This document shows, piece after piece, positions 7,720 to 62,652 of a stretch of DNA of 64,000 nt. This DNA comes from Naegleria gruberi (Eukaryota). Under the pieces are notes generated by a model. The model saw only the letters and a list, made by a program, of their open reading frames with translations, had not been told where the DNA came from and searched no databases. The DNA is taken from assembly GCA_000004985.1 (NCBI GenBank), contig GG738858.1. The stretch is one strand, 5' to 3'. Both the position numbers and the translations under genes were made by a program. Every line of letters begins with the position of its first letter. Within the stretch, counting starts at the first letter, position 1.

Positions 7720-7984
7720 NNNNNNNNNNNNNNNNNNNNNNNNNNNNNNNNNNNNNNNNNNNNNNNNNNTATCAAAAGAGAAAGATTAACATGTTAGAGC
7801 TCAATATCTCTATGGCTATATNTCAGCTGTTCAATAGAGATGATATATTGTATAATGGAATCTGTTGCTACTACTACATGGTGCTCTTACTAATTTTGAA
7901 GAAGTGCATCTAATACTACTAAAACTATATTGTTGAGTTTAAAACACAAGAATATCTTTGAAAATCTAGTTGACACACTAATAA

Positions 7985-15953: not shown

Positions 15954-16181
15954 TTAATTTCTTTGAATTATCTTTTTTAACTTTATCTGCAAGTGATTGT
16001 TTTTCATGTTTCTTTTCATCTCTTTTTTTTCTTCTTTCTAATTTTGATTGTTTCTTTTTATCAGATATTTCCTGTATTGAAGAAGAATCCGATGATGATT
16101 GTTCTGTTTGTTGATTTATTTCAATTGATTGTCTATATTCATCAAAGAGACGAAGTTGAAATTCTAAAAGTGATTTACTCA
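15954..16181 (-). CDS. 3' end of a gene whose body lies in the 16182-17230 gap. The C-terminal fragment is Lys-rich.
   Basis: Minus-strand ORF reading '...SKSLLEFQLRLFDEYRQSIEINQQTEQSSSDSSSIQEISDKKKQSKLERRKKEMKRN...*' and running into the N run. Stop (tta on plus) at 15954-15956. Confidence 0.35.
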
Positions 16182-17346
16182 NNNNNNNNNNNNNNNNNNN
16201 NNNNNNNNNNNNNNNNNNNNNNNNNNNNNNNNNNNNNNNNNNNNNNNNNNNNNNNNNNNNNNNNNNNNNNNNNNNNNNNNNNNNNNNNNNNNNNNNNNNN
16301 NNNNNNNNNNNNNNNNNNNNNNNNNNNNNNNNNNNNNNNNNNNNNNNNNNNNNNNNNNNNNNNNNNNNNNNNNNNNNNNNNNNNNNNNNNNNNNNNNNNN
16401 NNNNNNNNNNNNNNNNNNNNNNNNNNNNNNNNNNNNNNNNNNNNNNNNNNNNNNNNNNNNNNNNNNNNNNNNNNNNNNNNNNNNNNNNNNNNNNNNNNNN
16501 NNNNNNNNNNNNNNNNNNNNNNNNNNNNNNNNNNNNNNNNNNNNNNNNNNNNNNNNNNNNNNNNNNNNNNNNNNNNNNNNNNNNNNNNNNNNNNNNNNNN
16601 NNNNNNNNNNNNNNNNNNNNNNNNNNNNNNNNNNNNNNNNNNNNNNNNNNNNNNNNNNNNNNNNNNNNNNNNNNNNNNNNNNNNNNNNNNNNNNNNNNNN
16701 NNNNNNNNNNNNNNNNNNNNNNNNNNNNNNNNNNNNNNNNNNNNNNNNNNNNNNNNNNNNNNNNNNNNNNNNNNNNNNNNNNNNNNNNNNNNNNNNNNNN
16801 NNNNNNNNNNNNNNNNNNNNNNNNNNNNNNNNNNNNNNNNNNNNNNNNNNNNNNNNNNNNNNNNNNNNNNNNNNNNNNNNNNNNNNNNNNNNNNNNNNNN
16901 NNNNNNNNNNNNNNNNNNNNNNNNNNNNNNNNNNNNNNNNNNNNNNNNNNNNNNNNNNNNNNNNNNNNNNNNNNNNNNNNNNNNNNNNNNNNNNNNNNNN
17001 NNNNNNNNNNNNNNNNNNNNNNNNNNNNNNNNNNNNNNNNNNNNNNNNNNNNNNNNNNNNNNNNNNNNNNNNNNNNNNNNNNNNNNNNNNNNNNNNNNNN
17101 NNNNNNNNNNNNNNNNNNNNNNNNNNNNNNNNNNNNNNNNNNNNNNNNNNNNNNNNNNNNNNNNNNNNNNNNNNNNNNNNNNNNNNNNNNNNNNNNNNNN
17201 NNNNNNNNNNNNNNNNNNNNNNNNNNNNNNTTGCAATATATTCCAAAAAATTAATAAAAATATTTTTTATTTTAATAATATATATAAAAATGGATACAAA
17301 ATTAAATAGTAAATACTACATTAAATTAATAATTATATCATTTAAA

Positions 17347-18296: not shown

Positions 18297-19878
18297 GTAT
18301 TATTATTAGTATTACTAGTATTAGTATTATTATTATTATTGTTAATATTTTTAATATAATTTTTTAATAATTGAATAGATTGATCAAATTTCTTTTGTTT
18401 AAAATATAAATGTGATAAAATTAAAGTTGGAATTTCTGAATTATTATACTAAATAAATTAAATAATTCATTTTGAATAATTTTTTCACATTCATCAAATT
18501 TACCTAAATGTAATTGTAATAAACAATTATTTAAAGTAACACCTCTAATTTGTTCAGTTGTTAATTTACCTTGTAATTTATCTTGATAAGCATGTTTTAA
18601 TTTCTTTTGAGCTTCCAAATCAAAATGTGTTGTATTACCATTATTAGAATTACTATTATTAGTAGTTACATCTAAAATAGCAACAAGATTATTAGCAGCA
18701 ACTGCACCTGCAACTGTATCTTTAGATTGTGTAAAAACTTGTTCAAATAATTTTTTAGAAACATCAACTTGTCCATTTAAATATTTAACATAAGCTAATT
18801 GTACTAAAATGGAAGAAATTTCATTTGTATCTTCAATTTTACATAATTTTTGTGCAAATTCTAAATATTTCTCAGCTTGTTCATAATCTTTTAATCCAAT
18901 AGATNNNNNNNNNNNNNNNNNNNNNNNNNNNNNNNNNNNNNNNNNNNNNNNNNNNNNNNNNNNNNNNNNNNNNNNNNNNNNNNNNNNNNNNNNNNNNNNN
19001 NNNNNNNNNNNNNNNNNNNNNNNNNNNNNNNNNNNNNNNNNNNNNNNNNNNNNNNNNNNNNNNNNNNNNNNNNNNNNNNNNNNNNNNNNNNNNNNNNNNN
19101 NNNNNNNNNNNNNNNNNNNNNNNNNNNNNNNNNNNNNNNNNNNNNNNNNNNNNNNNNNNNNNNNNNNNNNNNNNNNNNNNNNNNNNNNNNNNNNNNNNNN
19201 NNNNNNNNNNNNNNNNNNNNNNNNNNNNNNNNNNNNNNNNNNNNNNNNNNNNNNNNNNNNNNNNNNNNNNNNNNNNNNNNNNNNNNNNNNNNNNNNNNNN
19301 NNNNNNNNNNNNNNNNNNNNNNNNNNNNNNNNNNNNNNNNNNNNNNNNNNNNNNNNNNNNNNNNNNNNNNNNNNNNNNNNNNNNNNNNNNNNNNNNNNNN
19401 NNNNNNNNNNNNNNNNNNNNNNNNNNNNNNGCTAATAATAATTCATTAGTATTATTTAATTCATTTCTATTAGATTGAATAATTTTCAAGGCTTCCTCTG
19501 CTTTATTTAATCTATACAAGGAATAAATCTTTTGAAAATTAGTGGATTGCAAATTTTCAATAACCTTGTTAAATTCTCCTTTTTGAATTTGATTAACAAT
19601 TTTTAATTGTTTTAATTGATTATTATTCTTATCATTGGATAATACTATTATTATTATTATATGATGAAGATGATCAAGATGGTAATGTTGATGATTAATA
19701 TGAAAGACGGAGAAGAAGATTAATACAGATAAGATTAAAATGATGATGAATATATATTCAACTACTACTAATATAACAACATACACTTTTCCAATGTAGA
19801 ATGAATTAAATCTTCATCTTCATCTTCGATGGCTTGTTTTAATTGTTGATAATTGGACAAGAGATTCTTTGGTGCCAT
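17347..19878 (-). CDS. Signal recognition particle 72-kDa subunit (SRP72) homologue. Multi-exon, interrupted by gap 18905-19430.
   Basis: N-terminal exon 'MAPKNLLSNYQQLKQAIEDEDEDLIHSTLEK' (ATG at 19876-19878) followed by minus-strand gtgtatgt. TPR-region match 'FQKIYSLYRLNKAEEALKIIQS' vs human SRP72 'FEKAYCEYRLNRIENALKTIES'. Ser-rich linker and basic C-terminus '...EEKKKQRKKRRNKLPIHS...FKSRWETKKK...AAKKKKKK*', matching the SRP72 'KKKKKGKLPKNYDP...PERWLP' tail. One frame discontinuity near 17860-17900. Confidence 0.6.
18266..18345. repeat. (TTA)n / (ATT)n trinucleotide microsatellite degenerating into tta/gta variants.
   Basis: 'attattattattattattattattattatagtattattattagtattactagtattagtattattattattatt'. 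Confidence 0.9.
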
Positions 19879-21670: not shown

Positions 21671-22048
21671 NNNNNNNNNNNNNNNNNNNNNNNNNNNNNN
21701 NNNNNNNNNNNNNNNNNNNNNNNNNNNNNNNNNNNNNNNNNNNNNNNNNNNNNNNNNNNNNNNNNNNNNNNNNNNNNNNNNNNNNNNNNNNNNNNNNNNN
21801 NNNNNNNNNNNNNNNNNNNNNNNNNNNNNNNNNNNNNNNNNNNNNNNNNNNNNNNNNNNNNNNNNNNNNNNNNNNNNNNNNNNNNNNNNNNNNNNNNNNN
21901 NNNNNNNNNNNNNNNNNNNNNNNNNNNNNNNNNNNNNNNNNNNNNNNNNNNNNNNNNNNNNNNNNNNNNNNNNNNNNNNNNNNNNNNNNNNNNNNNNNNN
22001 NNNNNNNNNNNNNNNNNNNNNNNNNNNNNNNNNNNNNNNNNNNNNNNN

Positions 22049-25155: not shown

Positions 25156-27541
25156 ATGAGTGCAAACGTTCCAAGAGAAATTCTCAAGTGGATGCAATCA
25201 TTGGACTTGTCGTATTCGATAAAGAATATGAGAAGAGATTTTTCAAATGGTTTTCTTATAGCAGAAATTATTTCTCGATATTTTTCTCAAGAGGTTGAAA
25301 TGCACAGCTTTGATATCGGTGTTGGAGTTAAGGCTAAAATGGATAATTGGCAATTATTAGAAAAATTCTTTAGAAAACATGGACTAAATATTTCAAGAAA
25401 AGTTATTGATGATTTAATTGCATGTAGACCAAATTCTCTGAATGTTGTTTTGGAAGAAGTTTATACATTTCTCACAGAAAAGAGGTAAGTTTTCAGTAAT
25501 AAGAATTTCTTGATCCGAATTTAAAACCAGTGTCAAGAAGGCTAAACCAATCAGACTTCCTACAGTTAATGTACCTAATTTTGCTAAACCAACAGTCTCT
25601 AAAACTAATAAGGATGATGGAAGAGCAGCTGTTTCAAGTTTTGTCATGTCAAAGAGAAATCAAATTTCATCAGCTAAAGGAAATTCATCTAACAATAATA
25701 CTAATAATGAAATACCTTCATTGGAAATTACATTTAGAGATAGTAAATCATCAAGTACTCAACGTTCTAAATCATCAAATCAACAACAACAAATGGCCGC
25801 CACTGCATTATTAGCAAATATTTTCATTGATATGAATGATATTATTGAGGCAGCATCATGTAATGAATCGGATATCATTTCAGAGTATAGATTGGACAGA
25901 GGAAATTTAATTGCATCATTTTTGGAGAAGATTAATTCAATTCCTGTTGAACATTCTGAAGGAATTCTTAATAGTATAAAGGAAAGGATTCCTCTCTATT
26001 CTGAAATGATGTCAGCTCAACCAAAAGATTTTTGGAAGTTTATGAACATTTTCATTCCAGCTGTAAGAAATTCATCTGCAACTGTGTTTCAAATATTGTG
26101 CTCTATTTTAATAACATTGGGTATTGAAATGGTATCGAGAGATCCTGAATCAACTTGGGAAGCTGTTGAAGATTTTGCATTGGATAAATTTGTTGAAACA
26201 ATTTCAACTCAAGCAAGTAAGAGAGAAGAAATTGTTCAAATTGTTTACAGTTTTACAACATCAGATTTCCACACCCATAAGAGAGTGATTTCAAAGTTAG
26301 TTGAAAAATGCTCTAAATACGAGTCACATTTAATAATTCATATCCTAGCTCTTTTGGTAAGACATGAGTCATCTCTTTTAACAATATATGATTCAGGAAA
26401 TGGACCAATTTTCAATGATGATCAAGTTGACTTTTTCGAAGTATACATGAATCATGCTATTAGTGGATTGAGTAATCCATCTCCAAAAGTTAGAGCTTCA
26501 AGTTTATCCATTGTTCATACATTATTATCATATGACGATATTACATTTGATAATAAGAATGAAACAAAATCTAAGAGAGATAATAGTGAAAGTGAAGTCA
26601 ACTTTTCCAATCAACCTTTATTATACATTATGGAAAATTTATGGTCCCAAAGTATTGAACCATTGGAAAATGATAATTGGTGGGAAGTAACAGCTCAATT
26701 AATTGTTTTAACCTCTAAGTGTTTGACACAAGTCAAAAAATTATACATGGTAGATAATATACAAGAGCATGAAGACATCTTGATAGCGTTCTTAGAAAGA
26801 CTGTTAGCTAGAGAATTGAGCTCAACATTGAAGAGTATCATTCTCTCATATGTTAGCTCTCATCTTAAAACATATAGTGACAGATTAACATCTGTTTACC
26901 TTGACATTCTCTTCTCTATAACAGAAGAAGAAAGAGTTGCACTTTTGGAACAACCTTCAAATCATGTTGAATTATTACAAGTTGGAAATAGTCAATACAA
27001 GTTCCCAATCATGAGTATACCATTTGAATGGGACAGTTTAACGGTTGCAAAGGTAGTTTCTGATCAAGTTGTAAATCTAGATCACTTGGAAGTTGAACAT
27101 TACGATGTATTGAATGCTTGTATATCTATAGCACAATTAGATCAACCTGAAGATGATAAGACATTTAAGGATTCATGTCCATCTGAATGGTTGGAGATTT
27201 ATGATCGTCTTCAAAATCACTTCTTTGTTGGATTGGTTGATGAAGAATTGTGCGAGATGGCTGCACAGTTGATAGTTAAATTCTTCTCAGTTTTGAAAAA
27301 GGAAGTTGTTAAATCAATGGCTGCCCAACTTGTTAACTCTATTGAAATAATCTATGGAGGTAACCAATTTGCACACCAACAAGCCATTTTTTCTCAGTTC
27401 TTAATAGACGTCTACTCTTTGGGAAGTCCATTCAGTCAACCATTAATGAAGCTTGCCAGTTCACTCATGGAACAATCGCATCTAACAACAAATCAACATT
27501 TAGGAAAGTTTGTATCCTTTGTGAGGAATAACATGATGTAA
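25156..27541 (+). CDS. SPEF1/CLAMP-type (DUF1042) calponin-homology domain protein with a long C-terminal extension. Two exons: 25156-25484 and 25531-27541, with a 46-nt intron.
   Basis: Exon 1 'MSANVPREILKWMQSLDLSYSIKNMRRDFSNGFLIAEIISRYFSQEVEMHSF...DNWQLL' aligns with the SPEF1 CH domain ('LYLWVDNIPLS...RNLSRDFSDGVLVAEVIKFYFPKMVEMHNY...SNWGHL'). The gtaagt...aaaaccag intron joins in frame to '...VKKAKPIRLPTVNVP...MSKRNQISS...', which is the 25646 ORF. Confidence 0.65.
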
Positions 27542-28643: not shown

Positions 28644-31356
28644 ATGAGTCGAGTCACACCACTATCACCCTCACAGCAGAGTCAAATAACGCCCTCAACA
28701 ACGACATTATCCTTTAAATCTTCGGATTCTAAGGGTCAACAGATGAATAATTCTGCTAGTACAATTCAAATATTAAATTCAAGACCAATATCAGCATCAG
28801 GTACGCAAAGAAGTAATTCACTTTTTGATGAAACTTACATTACTTCAAACTCTGAATTTGAAGCGGAGAGAATTGATAAACAAATGCCAGTCATGATGAG
28901 ATTAGAATCAGCAGTATTTGAGCCTAAGAAGAATACTTATGATCCAAATCAATTTTCATCAAGTACTTTAAATTTAAATTCTAAAAGTGAAACTAATCTA
29001 TCAACTATGGCTTTAAATGATCCAACTCCATCTGAAACAGGTAGCATTTATTCATTAGCTTCAAGTCCAAGAAGTTTTTATTTTAGTTTTAGATGTTCTT
29101 TATTATGTTCAATGTTTTTTTTAATTATTTCACCAATTTTATTATTATTAGCAATTTCCATAACCTTTTCTTTATTAACTTCAGTTGAAGTTGAAAAACA
29201 AGTTGTTTTATTATCTTTATATAGAGCTGAATTATATGTTTCTGATTTTTTAGATCTAGGAAGGAAATTAACAGTTTTACAAAAACAAATGATTACTGAT
29301 AATTATTATTCCAAGTTTGAAACTGATGATTATTTCAACACTTTTAATAATTACAAATCAATTTTAAAATCACTTGCTGCAGTTCACAAACATAATAAGG
29401 CTTCTTTCTTTTTATTTGATTTTACTTCTCGCAATGCTGATTACATTTATGTAAATACAAAACAAACCGAAACAAGAATTTGGAATTCCAAATTATATGA
29501 TAATCAACAAGAATATTATTACATGTCAAATATTGAATCTTTACCATATTCCAACATTACTAAATATAACTTGACGAAGGATTTAAAATTTGATGTTATT
29601 GGATATATTGAACAAGAATTTTGGAATCCGTTCGCAGAAACATATTTTAAATTATCACAATCGTATGATAAAGCTCTTGTACCAATGTCAGTACAAACAC
29701 AAGGTGCTGACAGTGTTGAAGAACGAGTTTACATTTGTTATCAGGAGAATGTCTATTCTCAAATTAATGAAACAAAATTCCTAGGCGTTACAAGTGCAAA
29801 TGTTGTGGTGAGAGAATTGGCTTCCTTTATTAAGAATTATCATGTTTCAGCAAGAGGTTTTGCACTTGTTGTAGAAATGAATTATGATCAAGAATCAAAT
29901 ACATTGAAAAAGAGAATGGTTGCCTATAAAGATTATAATCAATTGGCAAAGAAAGATCCAGAAAGTACAGGTGGTTATAAAATACCAGACGCAGAAGAAA
30001 TTGAAGATTTGTTTTTAAGATTTGTTATCACACAGATTATACCTAATAATGTTCATGATGTGAATATCAAATCAGAAGAATTGTTTAGATTCATGTATGG
30101 AGGTGAATCTTATTTAATGGCTTTTAAGATTGTTTCATCTTCAAAAGATTTAAACATGCAATGGTTGACTATTATTTGTGCTCCTGAAATTGGTATGTTT
30201 TTTTATTATCAAAAATTGAATCATATTTGAAATGTATATTGTTGAATTGTGTAATATAGATTTTATTGGTAATTTACTTTTATTAACAGGTCTTAATATT
30301 GGTGTTAGTATATTAGCATTCTGTTTTTCAATGGTATTTGTATTCTATTTTGCCTCTTCAATTTCTAAACCATTATTATATTTCTCATCTGAGAGTAAAG
30401 CCATTTCAAATCTTAAAGTACATCGTGGAGGAATTATCAAGACTAGAATTCGTGAAATTTTACTTTTATCTGAAGCTTTTGAAAAGATGAAGACAACATT
30501 GAGATCATTTATGAGATTTGTTCCTCGTCAATTAATTGTGGAAATGGTAGAAAAGGGAATTGAAATGAAATTAGGTGGTCATATTCATGAAAATATTACA
30601 ATTTTATTTTCAGATGTTGAAGACTTTACAACATGGAGTGAAAAATTAGAACCACAATTTTTAATTAGACATGTTTCTGAATATTTCCATGTCATGACAG
30701 AAGAAATTGTGAATGAAGAAGGTACACTTGATAAATATATAGGTGATGCAGTAATGGCATTCTGGGGAGCTCCTAATTTTATGTATGACACTTCAATGAG
30801 AGCTTGTAGAGCTGCTATTAAATGTCAAGAAAGAATGGACAAGTTGAGAAAAATATGGGAGAAACAAAACAAACCTTTATTTAAATGTAGAATTGGATTA
30901 CATACTGGTTCATGTATTATTGGTAATATTGGTTCTTTATGGAGATTAAATTATACTGCTTTGGGTGATTCTGTTAATTTAGCATCAAGATTGGAAGGTC
31001 AAAATAAGTTTTATGGAACTGAAATTTTAATTAGTCAAGATACTTATAAGAATGTTGCTAGTAGTTTTAATTGTAGAAGAATTGATACAGTTGGTGTAAA
31101 GGGTAAATCGGTTGGTATTACTATTTATGAATTAATTTCAAGAAAGGAAGAAACTATACCAAATCCTAAAATTGAAACACGTTTGAAATTAACTCCAATT
31201 TATGAATCTGCACTTGCTGAATATCAATTAGGAAGATTTACTGAAGCACTTAAATTGTTAATGACAAGATGTCAAGATATTGATTGTAATGACTTGGCTA
31301 CTCAAACGTTAATTGATAGATGTAAAGAATACATTCAATATCCACCATATAATTGA
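28644..31356 (+). CDS. Receptor-type class III adenylyl/guanylyl cyclase with ACG-like architecture: TM, about 340-aa extracellular sensor region, TM, cyclase catalytic domain. Two exons: 28644-30192 and 30290-31356.
   Basis: TM1 is 'FYFSFRCSLLCSMFFLIISPILLLLAISITFSLL'. The intron runs gtatgtt...ttaacag (30193-30289). TM2 is 'GLNIGVSILAFCFSMVFVFYFASSI'. Catalytic motifs: 'ITILFSDVEDFTTWSE', 'LDKYIGDAVMAFWGAP', 'RIGLHTGSCIIGNIG', 'GDSVNLASRLEG'. Total about 870 aa, similar to Dictyostelium ACG (858 aa). The CHASE-type identity of the ectodomain is inferred from architecture only. Confidence 0.75.
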
Positions 31357-31556: not shown

Positions 31557-32405
31557 ATGTCAACAACAACAACAATTAACAATATGGAAGTTAGCAAAAC
31601 TGCCCGCACTGTAATGATTGTTTGTATGCTATTGATGGGTATGACACTCATTCATGGCGCAACAACAGCCATTCAACTTAAAAGTTCAGGTGATACTGTG
31701 ACTGGATCCGTCAGCAAGGGAATTATGAATATGTATTATATTAATGTTGATAGTGTTAGTTCAATGTCTGTCCAATTCACCAACACTTATTCATCATCAT
31801 CTGTTAATGTTTATATCAAAGCTAATCAACCACCAACTACCTATAATTATGATAGTATTATTACCTATCCAGGTGTTTCAAAGAGTATTATTACATTGAA
31901 GAATTCAACTCTCACTCAACCATATTATATTGGTGTTTATGGTCTTGGTAGTTCTACTAATTATTATACTTTACAAGTTAGTGTCATCTCTGGACAAGAT
32001 ATTGCCAATTGGGTTATTGGTGTTATTGTTGCTGGTAAGTTGTTATCTTTACATTGATCTAATATCATACTCCTTTTTCATCTTTTCATACTAATCATCA
32101 TCATCTATTTAGCTGTTATTATCACCATTTTGTGTGCTGTTGCTGCTGTATTAATTCCAATCTTGATTTGTTGTGGTGTTCTCAGTTGCACAGTTTGTTG
32201 TGGAGCCGCAGCAGGTGCAGCAGCTGGATCAGCTGGATCATCAGGAACCTATCAACAAATTCATCACAATCATACCAATCATGTTCATCATTCTATTTCT
32301 CAACCAATTGCTCAACAACCAACTACTTATTATTCTGGTCAACAACCACCACAACAACAACAATACTATCCACAACCAACTTCTGCTAATTATCAAAAGG
32401 TTTAA
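31557..32405 (+). CDS. Single-pass membrane protein with a Cys-rich TM/juxtamembrane region and a His/Gln/Pro-rich cytoplasmic tail. Two exons: 31557-32034 and 32113-32405.
   Basis: Signal/anchor 'TVMIVCMLLMGMTLIHGA', a 130-aa ectodomain, then intron gtaagt...atttag. Then 'AVIITILCAVAAVLIPILICCGVLSCTVCCGAAAGAAAGS...QQPPQQQQYYPQPTSANYQKV*'. Confidence 0.55.
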
Positions 32406-39203: not shown

Positions 39204-42200
39204 ATGATGTCGGTTCAATCGATAGTGGGAGGAGAAGGTTCTTCTAGAAGGACCAGAGGATCAATTTATTCTTCAATGATTCTGATCATGTCAATTGTGA
39301 TGATGATGATGGTCATTTTGATGGGTCAACAGGAATATCATTCTTGTAGTGCTGTTGTGAATCCAACATGTTTTGGTTTTACCAATAGTTCAGGTTTTGA
39401 ATGTGTTCATCAATTGGGATCATGTATTAGTGATAATACTTGTTTCTTTTCTCCAACAACTTCAATCATTGGAATGGGTAGTAATACCTATTCACAACTT
39501 GGTATTACTGCTTCAAATTTTACTGATTATCCAATTAGAGTCAACTCTACGTACAATAGAATTTTCTATATCAGTAAAATGACAATGACTAATAGTTTAG
39601 TAACAGACTACAATGGAGATGTGTTAATGTCTTCAACTCAAGATCAAAAATTCATTCAAGCCTCCACTGCACTTCCTGCTTTGACAACTATGAATATTGG
39701 TGGTGATTTTCCAATTGCAATTTTAGGAGATGATACCACTACTGCTTTAATCACAACCACTAACAAGATTTATGTTTATGGCGATCAGACAAATAATAAT
39801 TTGGGTAGAGAAACTCTTGCTGATGAGGTTGTTTCCTCTCCTACTGCTTTGGGTTATCAGAATGTTGTTGATGCTTCTATTTCAAAATTGGGTGGATGTG
39901 CAATTCATAGCAATAATGGTGTTGACTTTAATATTACTATTTGGGGACCAGCTGCTAAAACCATGTCCAATGGAGTTGGTTATTTAGCATTGACTAATCA
40001 AGCCATTAATAATGATAATTCTCGACCATTTGTAAAATGTGAAATTATTTCTGCTAAGAATTCAAGTGGTTATGATGTTCCAGCAGTTTTTGTTATGGAT
40101 GATTTGGGTAATTTGTACTCTGGTGGAGCCAGAAGTAATTTGGAAGGTTGTAATCCAACCATCAAAAATGCATGTGACTTTGGTGAATGTTTTGCTGCTC
40201 AAAAGATTTTATCAAGTGTAGATTCATTCAAGTGTTCAGCCACTCATTGTGTTGCTGCAATTAATGGTACAGATATTTATGTTTGGGGAAATAACACAAA
40301 TGGTCAACTCGGTAATTCTGCCTATCTCCAAACACCAACAAGGATTCAAGTGTTTACTCCAGAAACTATAATTCAAGTAACTGCTACTAAGAAAAATATT
40401 TATGCATTAACTGAATCTGGTTTTATTTATGGTATTGGTAGTAATGAAAAAGGTCAATTGGGTCGTTCTCCATCTACTTTCCTCTCTAGAACCTATTTCA
40501 CTAAAATTGTAATTCCAGATCAAAGAAGAAAGATTTGGCATATGGCTGATGGTCCAAACAGTGAACATTTGTTGGCCTTTACTGGCTTCAAATGTGCATC
40601 TCAATACTCAGGTGGTGATTGTTCCACTCCTCTTTTCAACTGTGCAGGTTATGCTCCAAGCGATTCTGCTGTTTGTGGAGGTAATGGTATTTGTGCTGAT
40701 ACTGATTATTGTATCTGTTCTTCTGGATTTATTGGTCAATTCTGTAACACTACAGTTTCATCAGCTTGTTATGGAAAGCCAACAAATTTGGCTTGTAGTA
40801 ACAGAGGTTCTTGTATTGGTGTTGATAATTGTCAGTGTGCCTCACCATTCACTGGCAACCAATGTGAATTGTTCCAAAATGATTTTAATTTTGTTGCAAA
40901 TTTCTCACAATTACCAAACTCAAAGATTTATGATAACTTTAATATTTCTAATCTTGTTATCACCCCTACACTTGGTATTTCCAACCCAGCTTATAATACT
41001 ATTTGGGCCTATACTCAATATACCTCAAAGCTTTATTTGACAGGTCCATCTTCATACAGTTGGCAAGGTAGTCAATTATCATTCGATAAGAATTTTGTTA
41101 CCAATTTGAAACCAGGTTATTATGTTCTCAAATCAGAAAGTATTGCCAATGTTACCAATCAAATAATTGTTGTTAACAATACTTTTACATTTGAAAAGGT
41201 TTCTACATCTTTAACAAATCCACTTACATTAGATCAAACAGGTGTAATCTATGTATCACAGTTTGCATCTGTTGTTGTTTCAGCACTTATTACTGACCCA
41301 ACCTTTGATGCCTCAACATTTGATTATGACTGGCTTTCCAGTAATGATCAAGCTAATTATGTTTCTGTCAAAGCATCCACATCTATTGTCAATAATAATA
41401 AGATTACTTTTACCAATCTTGCATCTCAACTCCTTCCATCAAACTTTGCTGGTACCAATCACACTGTTTTTTTCAAAGTAACATACAATAGATATAGTGG
41501 CGACTCCAATTCATTTAGTGCTTATTTCACAGTTGTCATCAGTACAAAGGCCTATGCCCCAACTATTGCTCTAACTAGATTCCCATTTAGCAGTTATTTG
41601 TCAACAACAAGAGCAACAAGTCTTTCAGCTGTTTTGACCTTCACTGAAACTATTCCTTCAGATTTGGTTATTAGTTACTTGTGGACCTGTGATAAATTTA
41701 CTATTACAGATGCCACACAAGCTGCTTTAATTATCTATCCAGCTCAATTGACCATTGATACTTCATACCAATTCTCCCTGACTGTCACTGTATCATACAA
41801 GGGAGATGTTAACACATATGTTTCTACTTTAAATATCAAAACTCCACCTGCTTTACCAACATATTCTGTTAATACTCAAATACTCAGCATTTCTCCAAGC
41901 GATGGTAGTGGTGTTGCTCTCCTCACCTCTCACAATATCACAGTTGCTCCTCTTCCAGTTTCTGATACTAGAATTCTCAAGTATACTGTCAGATATTCTT
42001 TCAATGCAAGTGATGCTGCATCCTTTAAAGATTTATTATCTCTCAGTTCAACAATTTTGAATGATAGTGCTTATCTTCCATATGGTACTATGACACTTCA
42101 AATCTACATTGAAGACGAATATGGAAACAAATTGACAGCTGGCAACTTGGCTGTTTCAACTCAAAATATTGACTTTAGTTCACTTGCTAATATTATTAAC

Positions 42201-44732
42201 ACAAGAGATTTGTCTTTGAATCAAATTGAAACTACAGCAACAACACTCAATTCTGCTGCTGACCAAGATACTAAATCCCTAAGAGAAAAACTTTCAGAAA
42301 TTCTTATAGCCAAACTTAATGGTCAATCTTCTTCGACAAGTCAAGCTATTTTGAGTATTTCTCAAAAACCTTCAGATATCACTGCTAAAACTTCTCAACT
42401 CCTTGTTTCTGGTGTTACAACTTTGGGAGGTAATCTCAGATCAATTTATGCAGCAGGTGGTGAAGCAGATAAAATAGCTAGTGCCTTGACTGGTTCATTG
42501 TCAAACATTGTTGACAACAAGAATATTACTACAAATGAAACCAATAAGGATATTACCAATTCTTTGGCTTCTATCTCAAGAGAACTTGCCAAGATTTTAC
42601 TTCCATCCCAAACCTTGTCAATCAGCTCTAATAATTTCAATATCCTTGTTTTTGGATCTTCCTCTACAAAATCCAGTAATTATACTATTGAAGGATCATC
42701 AATTGGTACTCCTGACAACTTTGATGAATATCTTTCTGGTGCCACTTCATCACTTAACTCTGCCTCTAAGGCCTATGGTGTTGAACTTGTCTACTACAAA
42801 TCTTCATTGTTTGAATCAGTTGGAAAAGCCTCTAACAGTACAAGATCTAGTAATATTTTATCATTTGTTGTTAGTGCCTCCACATCATTTGGTAGTGAAA
42901 GTAGATCGACAGTTTCTATCAAGGGATTGACGAAACCTTTGGTGTTTACATTTACTGTAGCTAATGGTTCTACAAATGGATTCGAATGTAAATTTATTGA
43001 CGAAATTAATAATTATTGGAGTACAGATGGTTGTTCCTCTTTGATCCTCAATGACAACACTGTACAATGTTCATGCAATCACGCAACTAAATTCTCTACA
43101 TTCAGATTATTTACTCAAGTTGTATCCCAAGAAGAATATCTTGGAAGTACTGGTATTAGAATTGTCAATGTTATTTTTGGTGCTATTTATTTCTGTCTAG
43201 CTGCTTTGGTGTTCATTGCTTTGATTATTCTCAGAAACATCAATCCTGTAAGATCAAGATACATTGGTCCTTACATTGGTTTGATTGCAATTATGGTTGA
43301 CTCATTGATCATTTCATTCATCCAAAATATTGTAGTTTTATCTTTGGATAAGGGTATATCCAATTCAACTGCCGATATTGCCAATATTAGAAGAATCAGC
43401 GACGGTTTTAACTATTTCAATGTAATCCTTGTCATTCCTCTTTACTTGACCGCTTTCTTCACTTTCTTGGTCCAAATTGTTAGATACTTTATCAAGAGAC
43501 ACATGTATGAATTCATGTCAAATAAGGTTCTTTTCAATGCTCAAATTTATAGAGCTATTACTTCCAAGATTGCCTTTTGGGTTACCTTGCTTTCTTCTTT
43601 GGCAATAATTATGGCTTATTACACCATTTGGGTTGGTTTGGGAGGAGGAAATGTTTTCGTTGTTAGTACAAACACTGCTCAACAAGATAAGGAAAGAATG
43701 ACATTTACATATATTACTTCCCTTTCCTACTTTGGTCTTGCATGGATAATTGCTATCTGTATGGTTGTTATTGCAGCTTGGGATCTTTTCTACATGAATC
43801 GCCATTTATTCACTTCATGTTGTTATTCTCAAGAAGATTTGTTGAAGAAATCCTCTAGCAATCTTAATCAAACTAGAAATAGAGTTGAAAAACTTCTCAA
43901 TATGTTATCTAGAACAAAGAAACAAAAAGTTCAACTTGGAAAGTCTGCATGGTTGACTGTCCCTCAAGTTTACTACTTTACCGATGACAATTTATATTTC
44001 AGATTGGAAATTCACGTCTTTATTACAGCCTTTGTTTTCCTCACCATCAACTATCTTGCTGGTATTGCTGATATTTCAGTAATTTCAGTTGGATTAACCA
44101 ATGCTGGATCCCGTTTGGCTCCTCAAATTGTTTCCCTAATTGCTGGTATTCTCTACACATTCTGTTTGATTGCTGCTTTTGGTGGTGTGATTGTTGTCTC
44201 TTACCTTACTGAAAGACGTAGAAAGCAGTACCATAAGGATGTAGCTCCTCAATCAAAGATGGATGAAGATGAATTGAACATTGTATTGAGTGATAGATTT
44301 GGTAAACCATTGTTTGTTGAATTCTGTCAAAAAGAATTCTCACTTGAAGTAAGTTTTGGAAATTTTAATTTTATTAACACATTTAAATAGAATGTTTATT
44401 TCTATGATGCAATTACTGATTTCCTTAGAAGTGCTGATTCTAAATCAGATGCAGATGTTAAGAATTCCATTTCTGACATGTTTGAAAAGTATATCAAGAC
44501 TGGTTCTGAATATGAAGTCAACTTGCCTAGCGCCTCAAAGAAGGCCTTTATCACAACACACGAGTGTTCACAACCATCCTCCAAGATGGTTAAGGATATG
44601 TTGGACAATGTAATGATTTCAGTCATGTACAATTTGAAGGATACTTACAGTAGATTCTCAATGACTGAAGAATACAAGCTCTACCAACAAAGTAGAGACA
44701 ACATCAGTATGTTGGAAAACAACTTCTTGTAA
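39204..44732 (+). CDS. Large receptor with RCC1-like repeats, EGF-like Cys modules, an S/T-rich stalk, GAIN/GPS, 7TM and a C-terminal RGS domain. Two exons: 39204-44348 and 44391-44732.
   Basis: RCC1-type repeats: 'VYGDQTNNNLGRE', 'VWGNNTNGQLGNS', 'GIGSNEKGQLGRS'. EGF-like: 'CAGYAPSDSAVCGGNGICADTDYCICSSGFIGQFC', 'CSNRGSCIGVDNCQCASPFTGNQC'. GPS motif 'CKFIDEINNYWSTDGCSSLILNDNTVQCSCNHATKFS'. Seven hydrophobic helices span 43140-44230. The RGS domain is split by a 42-nt intron (gtaagt...aaatag): '...PLFVEFCQKEFSLE|NVYFYDAITDFLRSADS...EYEVNLPSASKKAFITT...YSRFSMTEEYKLY'. Confidence 0.75.
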
Positions 44733-52457: not shown

Positions 52458-54446
52458 ATGATGTATCAGCCAACAAAAAGTAAATACGAAACATTGCACA
52501 ATCATGATGCAGTACAAGGAAACAGCAAACAATCATCAAACTTACTGCCATCACTTCAAAATTGCAATAAGAGCAAACAACCTTGTATTTGCTCAACTAC
52601 AACTTCAACTTCACAAATTCAATCAAATATTTACCTCCAACAACAACCTTCCCGATCTAATGGTTATTTCAGTAATATGGACCATATGATTAATAGTAAT
52701 TCATCCTATCAATTGTACAGACAACATTCCTTCTTAGATTCAGTCCTTACTTCCAACAATAACAATAATGGACTTCTCGAGCATGATAACACATTTCCAG
52801 ATAATTATTCTACCAACATTCCAGGTACTGAACAAATATTAATGATATTAATGTGCAATGGTATGACCCCTGAATTCGATCAATTTAATGGTAAATTCAA
52901 AACTCCAACCTACAAGTACAGTACAAATAGATTAAGAACAGAAAATTTAAACACCAACAGTAGCAATGGTACAACACCATCCTCTTCTTCTTCCACAACA
53001 CCATCCTCTAGTATATCCTCCCCTAATTGTAATGATAATCTTAAATCTCACCTTGAGAGCTCAAATACAATAACAATCATATCCAGAGAAGATATTTGCA
53101 ACGTGAATGCTACTTGTAATTCTCCACAAAGAGAATCAATCTCTAGTAACAATCAACAATATCTTTCAGAATCTTCAAATAAGCTTGATGAAAACTTAAC
53201 CCTTCCTCCTTCTCCATGCGTTTCAGACATTTCCGAATCGGAACAAGTTAAAATTCCAGAAGAAATAATTTTCCAACAAATGACCACCACCACTCCTACG
53301 ACAGACCAAAACCTCATTCCTCACAAGATTGAATCTGTTATCCATGGTTCAACCGAATCATGTCGTATTTCTGATAGTCATGGCGAAACTACCGATGAAT
53401 CCAGTGATGAAGAGGATGCTCCAAAAGCAAAATATCCAAAAAGAGAAGCAAGAGACCAACAAAAAACAATGAAACAAGACCTATCACTTGATTCTGCAGA
53501 ATCATCTGGTTTTGTTGTTAAACCTACCAGGACTTACAGTTTCAGAGATGCCACTATCTATATTCTTTCTCAAATTGGTAAACCAATGACCGCAGTTGAC
53601 ATTACTAAGAACATATTTGATAACAAGATGGTTAAAAGCGCAGGAAAAACTCCTGAAAGAACTGTTGCAGCCATGATTTATCAAGAAATGAAAAAGAAGA
53701 AAAACACCTCTGAGTTTGCTTTATTTGGCTCTGGTCTCTTTGGTTTAAGTGCTTGGAAGAGTGATGACCACACAAGCCAAGATACTGCCAGTGTTTCCAC
53801 TGACGCCTCCTTGTCATCAGTTGACAGAGCTGATAAGAAGAAAAAGGAAAAGAGGAAAAAGAGGAAACTTGCTACTAAACCAGAGAAGGAATCAGAGCTT
53901 TCAGAAGCAGAAAGTGATAATGGGATGTCCGTTTCAAAAAGAAAACCTAGAAAAATGCACAAACACAAACAAGCTTGTTCTTCTTCAAGTGAGGAAACCT
54001 CAATGACAGATTCTGAAGAAACAACAAGTAGTAAGAAGAGAAAACACAATGAATCAGAAGAAACAGCAATTATTATGACAGAGGAAGCTCTTTTCAAAAC
54101 CTACATTTCCAAACTCAAAAAGAAGGATCAAACAGAATCCGATGAAGATGAATGTTTTGTTTGTAAGAATGGTGGTGATTTGATTTGTTGTGATTATAGA
54201 GGATGTAGAAAGGTTTATCATGCTTCATGTGTTGGTCTTAAAGAAGTGCCTCAAGGAGATTGGATTTGTCCTCATCACTATTGTGCAGAATGTAAAAAGA
54301 AATCATTCAGGAGCAAATCTTCTAAGAAGTGTTTCAGTTGTCCATATAGTGTTTGTGGTGAACATGGTTCTCTATTGAAAGATAAGATAGATAACGACAA
54401 GTATGTTTGCACAAAATGTAAACCAATGTGTGAGAACATTAAATAA
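52458..54446 (+). CDS. HARE-HTH plus C-terminal PHD-type zinc-finger chromatin protein. 662 aa.
   Basis: HARE-HTH-like 'YSFRDATIYILSQIGKPMTAVDITKNIFDNKMV...ALFGSGLFGL'. PHD/Cys-rich 'ECFVCKNGGDLICCDYRGCRKVYHASCVGLKEVPQGDWICPHHYCAECKK...CFSCPYSVCGEHG'. Acidic/basic Ser-rich linkers. Confidence 0.7.
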   Translation: MMYQPTKSKYETLHNHDAVQGNSKQSSNLLPSLQNCNKSKQPCICSTTTSTSQIQSNIYLQQQPSRSNGYFSNMDHMINSNSSYQLYRQHSFLDSVLTSNNNNNGLLEHDNTFPDNYSTNIPGTEQILMILMCNGMTPEFDQFNGKFKTPTYKYSTNRLRTENLNTNSSNGTTPSSSSSTTPSSSISSPNCNDNLKSHLESSNTITIISREDICNVNATCNSPQRESISSNNQQYLSESSNKLDENLTLPPSPCVSDISESEQVKIPEEIIFQQMTTTTPTTDQNLIPHKIESVIHGSTESCRISDSHGETTDESSDEEDAPKAKYPKREARDQQKTMKQDLSLDSAESSGFVVKPTRTYSFRDATIYILSQIGKPMTAVDITKNIFDNKMVKSAGKTPERTVAAMIYQEMKKKKNTSEFALFGSGLFGLSAWKSDDHTSQDTASVSTDASLSSVDRADKKKKEKRKKRKLATKPEKESELSEAESDNGMSVSKRKPRKMHKHKQACSSSSEETSMTDSEETTSSKKRKHNESEETAIIMTEEALFKTYISKLKKKDQTESDEDECFVCKNGGDLICCDYRGCRKVYHASCVGLKEVPQGDWICPHHYCAECKKKSFRSKSSKKCFSCPYSVCGEHGSLLKDKIDNDKYVCTKCKPMCENIK

Positions 54447-54709
54447 TTTATTTCACTTTACAATTTCAAATTTGATCTTATTGTTATCTGATTGTTGTTG
54501 GAATATCCCACCAATGGACATTGAGAGTGATAACAAGTCAATCACGACTTTCTCTCAGCGCAAGGAAAGAACAGTACTTATGGTAGGTACCTTCATATTA
54601 CTGTGTGACAAATATCAACATTTACAGAGTTGTTCCAAACTCTTTGGACTAGCATTGCCAAAATCCGACCACCTTTCCAGTTTGACATTTAACAAACACA
54701 AAAAAAATT

Positions 54710-57174
54710 ATGAAGAAACTCTTTTCCCGTACACCTAGCTTTCGTCCAAAATTTTCCAGTAGAATTGATAGCCATGAACAAACTGATGCTCTTGTAGGAG
54801 ATGTTTATCCTGGTCCTCATACAACTAATGGTCAATCATCAATAGTTAATAGTGCACCACTTAGTTCAACTAGTACTAATTCTCTTAACTCCACCACAAT
54901 CAAATATATGTTATTTGGTGGAGAACTTGATGATTCAGATCCAAACAAATTACCACAATTTATTCTTGATACCATTGATTTCCTTCTCAAATATGGTCTA
55001 GAAGTTGAGGGTATCTTTAGAGTTTCAACTCATGAGACTAGAAAAGCCGATTTGATCAACAAGATGAATGATCGATATGCTAAAGAGAAGGATCCACACA
55101 AGAATTGTACATTTACATATAATGGTACAAATAGTGATGAAGTTTATTTTGCCTCTGCTGTTTTAAAACATTACTTTAGAAGTTTACCAACTCCACTCAT
55201 CAAACCACAATTTTATGAAACTTTCATGTTGACAACTAAATGTAGAGATCAGGAAAGAAAAGACATGTTAAAGAATGCTGTCAGATTGTTACCTGTTAAT
55301 TATTTTACTTTATTGAAAAAGATTTCAGACCTTTGTTTTGAAATTTCAAAACACAGCTCATCAAATAAGATGACATGCGAAAATTTATCCGTCTGTTGGA
55401 CTCCTAATTTATTAATGTATGTTATTCATATTATTCATTTATTATTCATTTAGTGATTCAATATGATCTCAATAATTGTAAATGAATTGATCATTCATGG
55501 ATCAATAACTCTCTTCAAATTGTTAAATCAAATAGTAATAATAATATGGATTTTATGGAACAAATGAAGAGAACAGGTGATGCTCAAAATGTAATTGCAG
55601 CTCTTTTCAGAGATTGTAAACAAATCTTTGAAGACGAAGAAGAGGTACCTGTTAGAAATGTAGAAAGAAAACGATCAGCAGCTCAAACTAAGAAATTCTT
55701 TTTGGGACTCACTTCACAAACTTCTCAAGAAGGAATGGCAGTTTACAATGGAGAAAAGAATGAAAATGGAGAGAAACATGGTCGTGGTATTTTAATGTTA
55801 CCAAATGGTTCAGTATTTGAAGGTGAATTTAGAAATAACAGTTATGCAAATGGTAAATTGGTTTATGTTACAGGTGAACAATACGAAGGAAAGTTTATTG
55901 ATGATTTGCCAGATGATGATAATGGTGTTTTCCGTTTTGCAAACATGTCAGTTTACACTGGTCAAGTAAAGAAAGGCCAATTGACTGGAGTTGGTGAATT
56001 GAAATACAAAGATGGTGGTATTTACAAAGGATCATTTGTAAATGGAAAGAGAGAAGGAAAAGGAAGTTTTGAATTTTATGAAGGAAATCAAAAAGTTAGA
56101 CATTACGATGGTGATTGGGAAAATGATTCAATGAGTGGTCAAGGTACCCTAATTAACACAACTATTCAACAAGTTTATACTGGTCAATTTAAGAATAATG
56201 TTTATCACGGACAAGGTGTTTTAATTTCTGGTTTAGAACAAAATAGATGTGAAGGTGAATTTGAGAATGGTGTTGTAAAGAATGGTTCTGGAAGTTTCAC
56301 TTCACTGAATAATGAATTTATTCAATTTGAAGGATCATGGAAGAATTGTCAATTCACAGGTAAAATTAAGATTTTCAATTTCCAAACCAGATCATTAGAA
56401 TTTGAAGGTGATATGATTGACTCTAGAAAGAATGGTTTCGGTAAATTAGTTTATTCAGATGGATCATATTATGAAGGTCAATTTAATAATGATGAAATGA
56501 CTGGTACAGGTTCATTTGTTGATTCTGATAGAGTTTACAATGGTCAATTCGTTAAAAGTTTATTCCATGGTAAAGGAAAGTTAAAGGCAACTTTCAAATC
56601 TAAGGATTATGTTTTTGAAGGAGAATTTAGAGAACACCAACCATATAATGGTGTTGGTTCAGTTGTTGTGAGTAGAAAAACTGGAGATTATTGGGATGGT
56701 GAATTTAAGAATGGAAAGTTTAGTGGAAAGGGTCGTCTCACATTTGAAGATGCTTCTGTTTATGAAGGTAATGTTAAAAATTCACTTTGTGAAGGAAAGG
56801 GTGTTGTCACCTATCCAGATGGATCAATTTATTCTGGATCATTCTCAAATGATGAAAGACATGGTCCTGGAACACTCACTATTAAGGATGGAGATGAGAA
56901 GGATTTCATGATTGTCTCAATTAATCAAGTTTGGGATCATGGTGTTTTAGTTTCACAAGAAGAACCTCAATCACCTGCTACATTGGATGAGAAGGAATCT
57001 CTAATCTTTTCATTCCTTGACTCATTAGAGAAGGAAGAACCTCTGAGATTTGGACCACTTGTTGGTAAAGAACAACGACCTTACATCTCAACTGCCTTAA
57101 CAAAAGCAAAGGAAAATCCAAATACTTCAATCTTGTATGAAATTCTCTATCAACTCTCAAAATGCAGGCGTTAA
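54710..57174 (+). CDS. RhoGAP domain plus MORN-repeat protein. Two exons: 54710-55416 and 55536-57174. Intron 55417-55535 (gtatgtt...aaatag).
   Basis: RhoGAP 'VEGIFRVSTHETRKADLINKMN...VLKHYFRSLPTPLIKPQFYETF...NLSVCWTPNLL'. Across the intron it continues in frame as 'INNNMDFMEQMKRTGDAQNVIAALFRDCKQIF', the expected last helix of the GAP domain. About 15 MORN units follow ('YEGEFRNNSYANGKLVYVTGEQYEGKF...'). Confidence 0.6.
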
Positions 57175-59789: not shown

Positions 59790-61105
59790 ATGAAGAGAGT
59801 CTTATTGGTAGCTACCATTTTGGCTGTTCTCGCTGTTTCTGTCTTTGCCAAGACAATCACAGTCTCACTCAACAAGAAGGTTTTGGATCATTCTGATTCC
59901 AATGCTGTTGCTTGGTTCAACAATATCCGTATTGCTCAAATGACCAAGGTTGGTGCTGTTCCTAACAGACCATACTTGAAGACTGGTGCTTCTCCAGTTG
60001 TTCCATTGAACGATTTCTCTGATACTCAAGTATGTATTTTCATCAAGTATTGTTCTCTATAATTCCGTTATTTTTCCTGTTATTATTTTGTGTTAAAATT
60101 GATTTTTGGTGATCGATGTTAATTTATATTTGATTTGATGATGACAATTAATAACAGTACTATGGTTTTGTCAGTCTTGGTACTCCACAACAAAATTTCA
60201 AGGTTATTTTCGATACTGGTTCTTCCAACGTTTGGGTTCCATCTGAAAGTTGTTGGTCTATCACTTGTTTGTTGCACAACAGATACGATCACACCAAGTC
60301 CTCAACTTATGTTGCCAATGGTCAAAAGTTCAACATTACCTATGGTAGTGGTGGTGTTAACGGATTCTTATCTCAAGATGCTCTCTCTTGTGGTGGTATT
60401 CCAGTTAAGGGACAAGTTTTCGGTGAAGTTATGAGTGAACAAGGATTGGCTTTCTTGTTCGGTAAGTCTGACGGTATTGTTGGTATGGCTTTCCCATCTA
60501 TTTCTGTTGATGGTGTTACTCCAATGTTCAACAATATGATGAATCAAAAGTTGGTTGACAAGAATTTGTTCTCATTCTACTTGTCAAAGACTTCTGGTAG
60601 TACTGCAAGTGCTATGATTTTGGGTGGTATTGATACTAAGTATTATACTGGTCCATTGACCTATGTTCCATTGGCCAATAGAACTTATTGGGCTATTAGA
60701 ATCAACGATGTTGGTGTTGGTGGTGACTACAAGGGTGTCTGTCCTCCAGGTGGTTGTCTTGCTGCTGTTGATACTGGTACTTCCCTCATTGCTGGTCCAG
60801 CTTTGAAGATTGGTCCTATTATTGAATCTTTGAACATTGCTAAGGATTGTTCCAACATTGATTCTAATCCTGATGTTACTTTCAAGATTGGTGGTGTTGA
60901 ATATACTTTGAAGCCAAGAGACTATGTCTTGAAGATGACTCAATTCGGTCAATCTGAATGTATTGCCGGATTCATGCCATTGGCTTTGCCACCTCAATTT
61001 GGTGACTTCTGGATTCTTGGTGACGTTTTCATTTCCACTTATTACACTGTTTTTGACTATGATGGAAGCCGTGTTGGTTTCGCCAAGGCCAATCAAAACT
61101 TGTAA
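59790..61105 (+). CDS. Cathepsin D/pepsin-like (A1 family) aspartic protease. Two exons: 59790-60029 and 60158-61105.
   Basis: Signal peptide 'MKRVLLVATILAVLAVSVFA'. Intron gtatgt...ataacag. 'YYGFVSLGTPQQNFKVIFDTGSSNVWVPS' and 'AAVDTGTSLIAGP' give the two catalytic D(T/S)G motifs. Also the Tyr-flap 'YGSGG'. Confidence 0.88.
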
Positions 61106-61268: not shown

Positions 61269-62652
61269 ATGTGGAAAGGTTGGAATGATCTTGTGGGCAC
61301 AGTGACTGGTGGAAATCATCACACCTCTACGGAAAATAGTGAAGAAAGTGAGGCATCAAATGAAGCAACAAATAATTCCTCCTCCGTACCATCATCAGAA
61401 TATTACACCAAAGATGATTTTGAATTGATCAATAATAAGGAAGATGCAGAAATACATTTAGTTATTTTAATTGCAGGAATGGGTGCTAGAAAGGGACATT
61501 ACCTTTCCGATTCACTTCTTGTTCCTTTTGGTAAATGGTTTGATATTAACAAGTGTCAACAAGCAATGAAAGAAGAAGTTTCCAATTGTTTCAAATCTTA
61601 TGCAAATGATCAGGTTAAAAAGAGATCTCCTCATATTTTGATTCGATCAATTGATTATTGTTCAACTGTTAGAGAAGAAGGAGGTTATAATGAAAAATTG
61701 AATCTTATTTCAATGAAATCAGGTGTTCAATTCCTTCGTTTAATTGCCAATGAATCAATGATTGATGTTTTAATGTATAATAGTGAAAAAATCAAACAAC
61801 AAATGCAAACTGTAAGTGTCAGGAATTGTTGAAAATTATATTGATGAATTACATTACAGACTGCTGTCAAACAAATTAATGAAATATTTGAGGAATTTAA
61901 GGATGTTCCAATCAAATCAGTTTCATTTGTTGGACATTCACTTGGTTCTGTTCTTGCCTTTGATATTCTTTATCAACATCAAGAATCTGGAAATACTCTT
62001 TTAAAGATGAATCCTAATAGATGCTTTTTAGTTGGAAGTCCACTTGGTTTGTTTTTGACAATGTCAGTTCAAACAACCAACCAATATTTAGAAGCATTCC
62101 ATTGTGTTAATCCTCAAACAAATAAGAAACAATTATTGAAGGAAATTGATGTTTATCACTTGTACCATCCTTATGACCCTGTTGCTTATAGATTGGATCC
62201 TCATTTAGATTCTAGATTTGGAAAACATGATCCTCATAGCTGTATGTTGTTATTTCACATTCTGATTTGTTAATTATTCAATAGTGGAGTATTTTGCTAG
62301 AAGATTTAATCCAAATCATTATGTCAATCAATTCAATAACTATGTAAGTAACACTTTAAAATAGATTATTCGAAACAATTTTCATTAGAAAGCTAAGATA
62401 TTTGGAAATCAAGAAAAGATTGATGAAGAATTAAGTGAACTCCTTAAACAATATGAAATGTATGTTAATTTTGAGAATAATTTATCTAACTTTCTTTATA
62501 GTATTGATTATTGCCTTCCAGTAAACTCTGAGCTTGTTATTAATGAGTATTTGAGTGCTGGTGATGTACATTTGAAATATTGGAACAATACTGAAGTTAT
62601 TTGTTTCATTTTAGAGAAAATGAATTTGATTTCTGCCAACAAATCTGAATAA
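61269..62652 (+). CDS. DDHD-type serine lipase/phospholipase A1-like (GHSLG). Four exons, approximately 61269-61811, 61860-62241, 62285-62343 and 62389-62652.
   Basis: After a 48-nt intron the frame continues 'TAVKQINEIFEEFKDVPIKSVSFVGHSLGSVLAFDILY...CFLVGSPLGLFL...VYHLYHPYDPVAYRLDP'. These are the GxSxG nucleophile elbow and the DDHD-like 'HP.DPVAYR' block. Introns have gtaagt/gtatgt donors. The final exon ends '...ISANKSE*'. Confidence 0.6.

Follow-up and report, generated by a model that had tools for sequence, protein, structure and literature searches.

Adjacent RhoGAP and MORN-repeat reading frames of Naegleria gruberi very probably form a single two-exon gene

Gene structure at the locus

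The subject of this analysis is a locus on the plus strand of Naegleria gruberi contig GG738858.1 (assembly GCA_000004985.1), lying within a stretch of 64,000 nucleotides (nt) hereafter termed the window, where a RhoGAP open reading frame (ORF) is closely followed by a MORN-repeat ORF. The RhoGAP frame, ORF1 (54710..55453; 247 amino acids (aa)), ends in '...CWTPNLLMYVIHIIHLLFI' (longer excerpt '...MTCENLSVCWTPNLLMYVIHIIHLLFI'), and the MORN frame, ORF2 (55546..57174; 542 aa), begins with an ATG of its own at 55546. An initial annotation made from the letters alone had read the two as parts of one spliced gene, and the ORFs, the GTATGTT donor, the AAATAG acceptor and the in-frame join that it described were all found at the coordinates listed in Table 1.

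Joining 55416 to 55536 creates the split codon AT|T (Ile236) and a single 781-aa ORF that ends at the TAA of 57172-57174. The residues around the join read '...CWTPNLLINNNMDFMEQMKRTGDAQNVIAALFRDCKQIF...' (longer excerpt '...CWTPNLLINNNMDFMEQMKRTGDAQNV...'), and the junction peptide NLLINNNMDFMEQMK is present in the spliced product. Exon 1 encodes a low-complexity N-terminus followed by RhoGAP helices as far as '...MTCENLSVCWTPNLL', and its N-terminus can be aligned with those of the N. fowleri (MPVFKRVFSFRPK) and Willaertia (MKKLFSR) homologues. Exon 2 ends by encoding '...ILYEILYQLSKCRR', the counterpart in the alignment of '...IIFEIIYQLSKRAKH' at the C-terminus of the N. fowleri protein. The GC content of the intron is 21.8%, against 32.7% in exon 1 and 33.6% in exon 2, and the spacers that flank the gene within the window measure 157 and 263 nt. 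From the sequence evidence presented below, 54710-57174 (+) very probably constitutes one protein-coding N. gruberi gene of two exons, interrupted by a single U2-type phase-2 intron of 119 nt. It is an ordinary gene structure, with an orthologue already present in databases.

Evidence for splicing across the intron

The nearest relative of the spliced protein is N. fowleri FDP41_004539 (P0001, XP_044561353.1 / KAF0976640.1, UniProt A0A6A5BS50, listed as 'Rho-GAP domain-containing protein'), a protein of 762 aa matched with a coverage of 99% and an identity of 63% by BLASTP or 65% in a MAFFT alignment. A metagenome protein from ENA (P0002, 756 aa) is about 51-52% identical to the spliced protein, and exhaustive HMMER searching from exon 1 by itself added Willaertia magna KAL9657289.1 (P0151) and a JGI metagenome protein (P0134). 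The RhoGAP-MORN layout is colinear in all four homologues, and the five proteins could be aligned from their first residues to their C-terminal helices. No intron breaks up the genes of N. fowleri (2289 nt) and P0002 (2271 nt): each is one continuous ORF whose length equals 3 x (aa+1) nt exactly, and at the position of the junction they read CWQPNILYNPSHDFMEQ and CWQPNLLVNPAEDFLQQ, respectively, against CWTPNLL|INNNMDFMEQ in the window, with zero gaps.

Twelve GT-AG pairs around the gap between the two frames leave an open reading frame when joined, and only the pair 55417/55535 gives a gapless fit to the homologues; each of the other 11 introduces an indel of at least 12 residues relative to them. 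A local reference was provided by three other introns of the window, each lying inside a Pfam domain that is made continuous only by splicing (Table 1). The donor GTATGTTA at 55417 fits the GTATGT/GTAAGT (GTA[AT]GT) consensus of these three validated introns, which are a small sample from one 64-kilobase window. Introner-like repeat copies of the intron were absent from the window, where blastn-short returned chance-level matches of 12-21 nt only, and a literature search for Naegleria intron statistics found nothing specific.

A further line of evidence comes from L005, an environmental metagenome contig (ENA ERZ929261, 2312 nt) that is 99.3% identical to window positions 53777-56083 and supplies one strain pair. 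Its intron retains the GT and AG ends and differs by four substitutions and a 1-nt deletion (five differences in 119 nt, 4.2%). Exon 1 shows as its sole change a 6-nt in-frame insertion that adds two Asn after window position 54900, in the low-complexity N-terminus, and exon 2 shows two substitutions, both synonymous, over the 548 nt compared. Five changes per 119 nt of intron thus stand against three events per 1255 nt of exon (Fisher's test, p = 2e-4), and the upstream gene carries one synonymous change. Judged from these sequences, the pattern of change in the intron is relaxed and non-coding, and the exon changes are all synonymous or in frame, as under purifying selection. The 1-nt deletion also alters the tail that is obtained by reading from exon 1 into the intron, which is MYVIHIIHLLFI (12 residues) in the window and MYVIHIIIYYSFSDSI in L005; because it is changed by a strain deletion, this tail is not conserved coding sequence. 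A database 'protein' of 253 aa on L005 (P0121) consists of unspliced exon 1 plus the intron read-through, and P0280, from a Logan assembly, clusters with the ORF1 read-through product at the 90% level.

The reading of the locus as one spliced gene with the junction 55416|55536 is therefore backed by the homologues, the unique splice pair, the strain pattern, the local donors and, as described in the following section, the alignments to solved RhoGAP structures in the PDB.

Table 1. Coordinates of the RhoGAP-MORN gene, its product features and the reference introns of the window.
Feature	Coordinates	Strand	Details
Exon 1	54710..55416	+	ATG at 54710; residues 1-235 and first 2 bases of codon 236
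Intron, spliceosomal GT-AG	55417..55535	+	119 nt, phase 2
Donor GTATGTT	55417-55423	+	Intron end
Candidate branch site CAATAAC, followed by CTCTCTTC pyrimidine run	55503-55509	+	Predicted
Acceptor AAATAG	55530-55535	+	Intron end
Exon 2	55536..57174	+	Last base of codon 236, residues 237-781, TAA 57172-57174
RhoGAP domain	54953..55641, intron-interrupted	+	Residues about 82-271; Pfam part 82-238
Arg104 codon AGA, candidate catalytic arginine finger in 'EGIFRVS'	55019..55021	+	Alignment to solved RhoGAPs
Asn225 in 'MTCENLS'	55382-55384	+	Alignment to solved RhoGAPs
Terminal loop and helix, 'NNNMDFMEQMKRTGDAQNVIAALFRDCKQIFEDEE'	exon 2	+	Residues 237-271; PDB RhoGAP alignments
MORN-repeat array	55744..56898	+	Residues about 306-690; some 16 repeat units, each of about 23 aa
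Helical C-terminal tail	56971..57171	+	Residues about 715-781; no Pfam match
Reference intron	44349-44390	+	42 nt; GTAAGTTT...AAATAG; restores RGS PF00615, 4-115/117
Reference intron	61812-61859	+	48 nt; GTAAGTGT...TTACAG; restores DUF676
Reference intron	63758-63704	-	55 nt; GTATGTAT...CTAACAG; restores Myb PF00249, 1-46/46

Domain architecture of the spliced product

The Pfam RhoGAP family PF00620 is matched in ORF1 with an E-value of 2.9e-31 and 107-109 bits, against a cut-off of 24.5. In a phmmer comparison with PDB sequences, the alignments were carried close to the ends of the solved GTPase-activating protein (GAP) domains, up to chain residue 206 of 209 for ARHGAP5 (2ee4) and 198 of 201 for p190A (5irc). 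On the query side they reach residues 211 and 207, which correspond to residues 267-271 of the joined protein, and the junction lies at query residue 176. Since these alignments run past the junction, the 31-36 residues of exon 2 that they cover can be assigned to the loop and helix with which solved GAP domains end. It was proposed initially that ORF1 stops about 15 residues short of a complete GAP domain and that exon 2 supplies the missing C-terminal helix; the second part is upheld by the PDB alignments, and in the first the C-terminal piece is indeed missing, the size given for it being too small by these alignments and too large by Pfam, which already matches 144 of 148 positions. The Pfam family PF00620 is shorter than the structural RhoGAP domain, and, as far as the alignments indicate, splicing is needed to complete the helical bundle with its C-terminal helix. 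In the N. fowleri orthologue the equivalent of the junction is residue 223, and an AlphaFold model of this protein predicts a helix immediately beyond it, at residues 229-248 (predicted local distance difference test (pLDDT) about 71-82).

The motifs around Arg104 and Asn225 match 'EGLYRVSG'/'EGIYRVSG' and 'MTADNLS'/'MTSENLS' of ARHGAP5, ARHGAP20 and ARHGAP35, and both residues are invariant across three orthologues. A catalytic role of the arginine finger and the conserved Asn is established for p50RhoGAP and p190. As the two residues are aligned and invariant, the protein most likely functions as an active GAP that acts on a GTPase of the Rho/Rac type.

The best-matching solved GAP domains are those of the human p190 RhoGAPs (ARHGAP35, 5irc/3fk2; ARHGAP5, 2ee4), with E-values of about 1e-12 to 1e-13; they align with the N. 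gruberi protein at the arginine-finger motif, at the conserved Asn and over the C-terminal helix, and were also recovered by the fold search. The likeness is confined to the GAP domain, however, at an identity of about 25-30%, and the p190 proteins carry GTPase-like, FF and pseudo-GTPase domains and are without MORN repeats.

The MORN family PF02493 is matched in ORF2 with an E-value of 5.6e-45 and 144-149 bits (cut-off 22.5), in 11 stretches at E<=1. About 16 units were counted by eye on the joined sequence, and a regular-expression scan flagged 14 of them together with one unrelated match in the GAP region. The 11 Pfam stretches and the units counted by eye make the figure of about 15 repeats put forward at the outset a fair one. 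In the model of the N. fowleri orthologue this region forms a MORN beta-hairpin array, with strands over residues 285-690 and a pLDDT of 80-93, and the top Foldseek matches of that model are MORN1 crystal structures (E 1e-17). The elongated beta-hairpin array is shared with MORN1 of Toxoplasma, Plasmodium and Trypanosoma (6t6q, 6t4d, 6t4r), at target TM-scores of 0.71-0.80 for the orthologue model. It also superposes on the axonemal radial-spoke and central-pair MORN proteins (7jtk, 7sqc) and on junctophilins (7rxe, 9uo9), the target TM-scores of the MORN set spanning 0.71-0.87 overall. None of these proteins has a GAP domain, whereas the N. gruberi array is longer (about 16 units) and shares its polypeptide with an enzyme domain. 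By analogy, the MORN array may serve as a targeting or scaffolding module.

Beyond the array, the C-terminal tail is predicted to be helical in the orthologue model at low confidence (pLDDT <50), and its motif '..NP.T....E...Q' is conserved in all five aligned proteins.

The RhoGAP-MORN family

With respect to its homologues, the N. gruberi protein and N. fowleri FDP41_004539 share the order of N-terminus, RhoGAP domain, linker, MORN array and C-terminal helices, and the two are orthologues; the N. fowleri gene differs in being intronless, and its product is 19 residues shorter, most of the difference falling in the low-complexity N-terminus and the linker. The Willaertia protein, P0002 and P0134 show the same RhoGAP-MORN architecture and the conserved C-terminal motif, but at an identity of 30-52%, and the Willaertia model, at 610 aa, is in addition shorter, contains fewer MORN units and carries an insert of 35 aa in its GAP domain. 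Because the Willaertia homologue has the same architecture, the family spans Naegleria and Willaertia. It is a small family, so far found only in Naegleria, Willaertia and the organisms represented in metagenomes.

A metagenome scan that started from an alignment of the GAP junction yielded no further orthologues. A second homology search, made with the GAP region only, missed P0001 and P0002 despite identities of 59-71% in that region, and the negatives of that search are therefore weak evidence.

Two separate observations concern the relatives themselves. The insert of the Willaertia protein, at residues about 170-205, is Ser/Thr/Pro-rich and divides its RhoGAP Pfam match into two stretches; the insert and the absent MORN units could reflect either genuine divergence or an annotation in which an intron or exon was modelled wrongly. 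Gene order also differs between the species, as seen when positions 3959-5939 of the N. fowleri contig VFQX01000037.1 (L001) are compared with the window, the N. fowleri RhoGAP-MORN gene following a gene for a ferric-reductase/NADPH-oxidase-SH3 protein and the window gene following one for a PHD/HARE-HTH protein.

Points against the assignment and alternative readings

Some observations weigh against the reading of the locus as one spliced gene. ORF2 has its own ATG, and prokaryote-style gene callers treat the two frames as separate ORFs, P0121 being an example. The intron, at 119 nt, is longer than its three validated neighbours (42-55 nt). PF00620 is nearly complete in ORF1 alone, with coverage of positions 1-144 of 148, and extends only to 1-147 of 148 in the join. 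The check suggested at the outset, whether the match to this family becomes full length only with exon 2, is not decisive, because 144 of the 148 positions are already matched without that exon. Finally, the AlphaFold model of the orthologue was built on five alignment rows, and the N-terminal half of its GAP domain has a pLDDT below 50, so that it bears weakly on the packing of the helix.

The initial annotation had also raised the prospect of one gene with alternative products, and meaningful isoforms of this kind are considered improbable. Retention of the intron, or use of the acceptor-like CATTTAG that ends at 55453, would yield a truncated GAP without the last helix and without the MORN array. 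The CATTTAG is present as described, its product would end '...LLIDSI*', and protists, when they splice alternatively, most often do so by retaining introns. The isoform proposal itself, however, finds no support: the inner intron would be 37 nt long (36 nt in L005), below the validated 42-55 nt; the truncated protein would be without the structural GAP helix and probably unstable; the retained-intron tail differs between strains and is unconserved; and the intron-free homologues are unable to make such isoforms.

That the locus holds two independent genes, namely a RhoGAP-only gene ending at the TAG of 55451-55453 and, after a spacer of 92 nt, a MORN gene starting at ATG 55546, is highly improbable. 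Such an arrangement would suit the presence of a start and a stop in each ORF, the near-complete Pfam match in ORF1 and the short intergenic spacers beside the gene. It is difficult to reconcile, however, with homologues that are without exception single colinear proteins, two of them encoded without interruption, or with a 12-residue read-through tail that is frame-shifted in a near-identical strain and so carries no coding constraint. The INNN just 5' of ATG 55546, moreover, aligns with YNPS and VNPA of the homologues, and a RhoGAP-only product would be a GAP without the terminal helix that is seen in every solved RhoGAP aligned that far.

Use of other splice sites within one gene is less credible still. 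The pairs 55453/55535 (83-nt intron, 12 residues more) and 55417/55571 (12 residues fewer) are both in frame and keep the ORF open, yet each imposes a 12-residue indel on an otherwise gapless alignment. Acceptor 55571 deletes the conserved DFMEQMKR, and donor 55453 (GTGATT) is off the local GTA[AT]GT consensus and falls out of frame through the 1-nt deletion in L005. An assembly artefact, or a pseudogene disabled by a 119-nt insertion, could be imagined from the lack of the insertion in the homologues and from the several runs of N that mark the window assembly as imperfect, but is next to negligible, as the same segment (118 nt) occurs in the independently assembled L005, a Logan assembly carries P0280, the ends are canonical GT and AG with the frame exactly restored, and every change that separates the strains within coding sequence is synonymous or in frame.

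Intron history and database representation

For the single spliced gene preferred here, the absence of the intron from the N. fowleri and P0002 genes, P0002 being the most distant of the three by identity, means that parsimony slightly favours one gain along the N. gruberi lineage over two losses. The broader proposition, that the intron was gained recently in the N. gruberi clade between the last two RhoGAP helices, that its regulated retention could yield a short GAP without the MORN array and, separately, that the gene is possibly absent from the NEG-M reference proteins, is regarded as rather unlikely.

As to the reference proteins, six ORFs of the window, each a single exon, are identical to NEG-M proteins (EFC46506, 46507, 46509, 46510, 46512 and EFC46624), all from one scaffold. 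The homology searches, one of which missed known homologues, returned no N. gruberi protein for ORF1, ORF2, the join or the upstream 662-aa ORF. Exact look-ups of the join, the alternative join, both ORFs and the upstream ORF showed them to be absent from the protein collection. In the accession series, one slot (EFC46511) is left for the plus-strand interval that holds the RhoGAP-MORN gene and the upstream gene, and a literature search on XP_002679255, EFC46511 and D2V9R2 returned zero papers.

Other features of the window

The upstream ORF (52458-54446, +; 662 aa) encodes a C-terminal PHD-type zinc finger and a HARE-HTH domain, with best matches in N. lovaniensis C9374_008612 (41%) and N. 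fowleri FDP41_004607 (46%). This gene may be missing from the reference set or modelled differently in it.

Several other ORFs of the window also appear to be interrupted. A 1728-aa ORF (39204-44390, +) runs across the 42-nt reference intron, beyond which the sequence 44391-about 44730 encodes a C-terminal RGS domain; 39204-about 44730 would encode a large membrane protein (about 1828 aa) that combines RCC1-like and EGF-like regions with an RGS tail. The ORFs 28644-30230 and 30232-31356 (+) are separated by a single stop, and a candidate 67-nt intron at 30193-30259 (GTATGTTT...AATATAG) probably connects them. When joined, these ORFs would encode a membrane protein of 882 aa whose C-terminus resembles adenylate/guanylate cyclases. 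More candidate introns of 46-128 nt with GTATGT/GTAAGT donors were noted at 60030-60157 (+), just 5' of a pepsin-type aspartyl protease domain, at 32035-32112 (+), and at 25485-25530 (+), after a CH_2 (sperm-flagellar-type CH) domain.

Runs of N, which are assembly gaps or masking, occupy positions 1-6306, 7720-7769, 7822, 16182-17230, 18905-19430 and 21671-22048 (8310 positions in total). The GC content of the window is 29.6% when they are left out, against a naive value of 25.8%, and the runs also create spurious 'ORFs' of X (e.g. 15993-17309).

Proposed function and significance

The spliced mRNA would be translated into a 781-aa protein that starts with a short, disordered segment, continues through an entire RhoGAP domain and a short acidic/basic linker into about 16 MORN repeats, and ends in a conserved helical tail. 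From family membership, the GAP domain, through Arg104 and Asn225, is expected to speed GTP hydrolysis on a Rho/Rac-family GTPase, and the MORN beta-hairpin array would place it at a membrane, cytoskeletal or axonemal structure.

The main value of the finding lies in the correct structure and annotation of the gene, and general concepts are left unchanged by it. A naive or prokaryote-style ORF reading yields separate 'RhoGAP' and 'MORN' proteins in place of one, an artefact exemplified by the database entry P0121. N. gruberi is a model of the amoeboid-to-flagellate conversion, and the protein encoded by the joined exons may be regarded as a candidate for spatially targeted inactivation of Rho/Rac in this organism.

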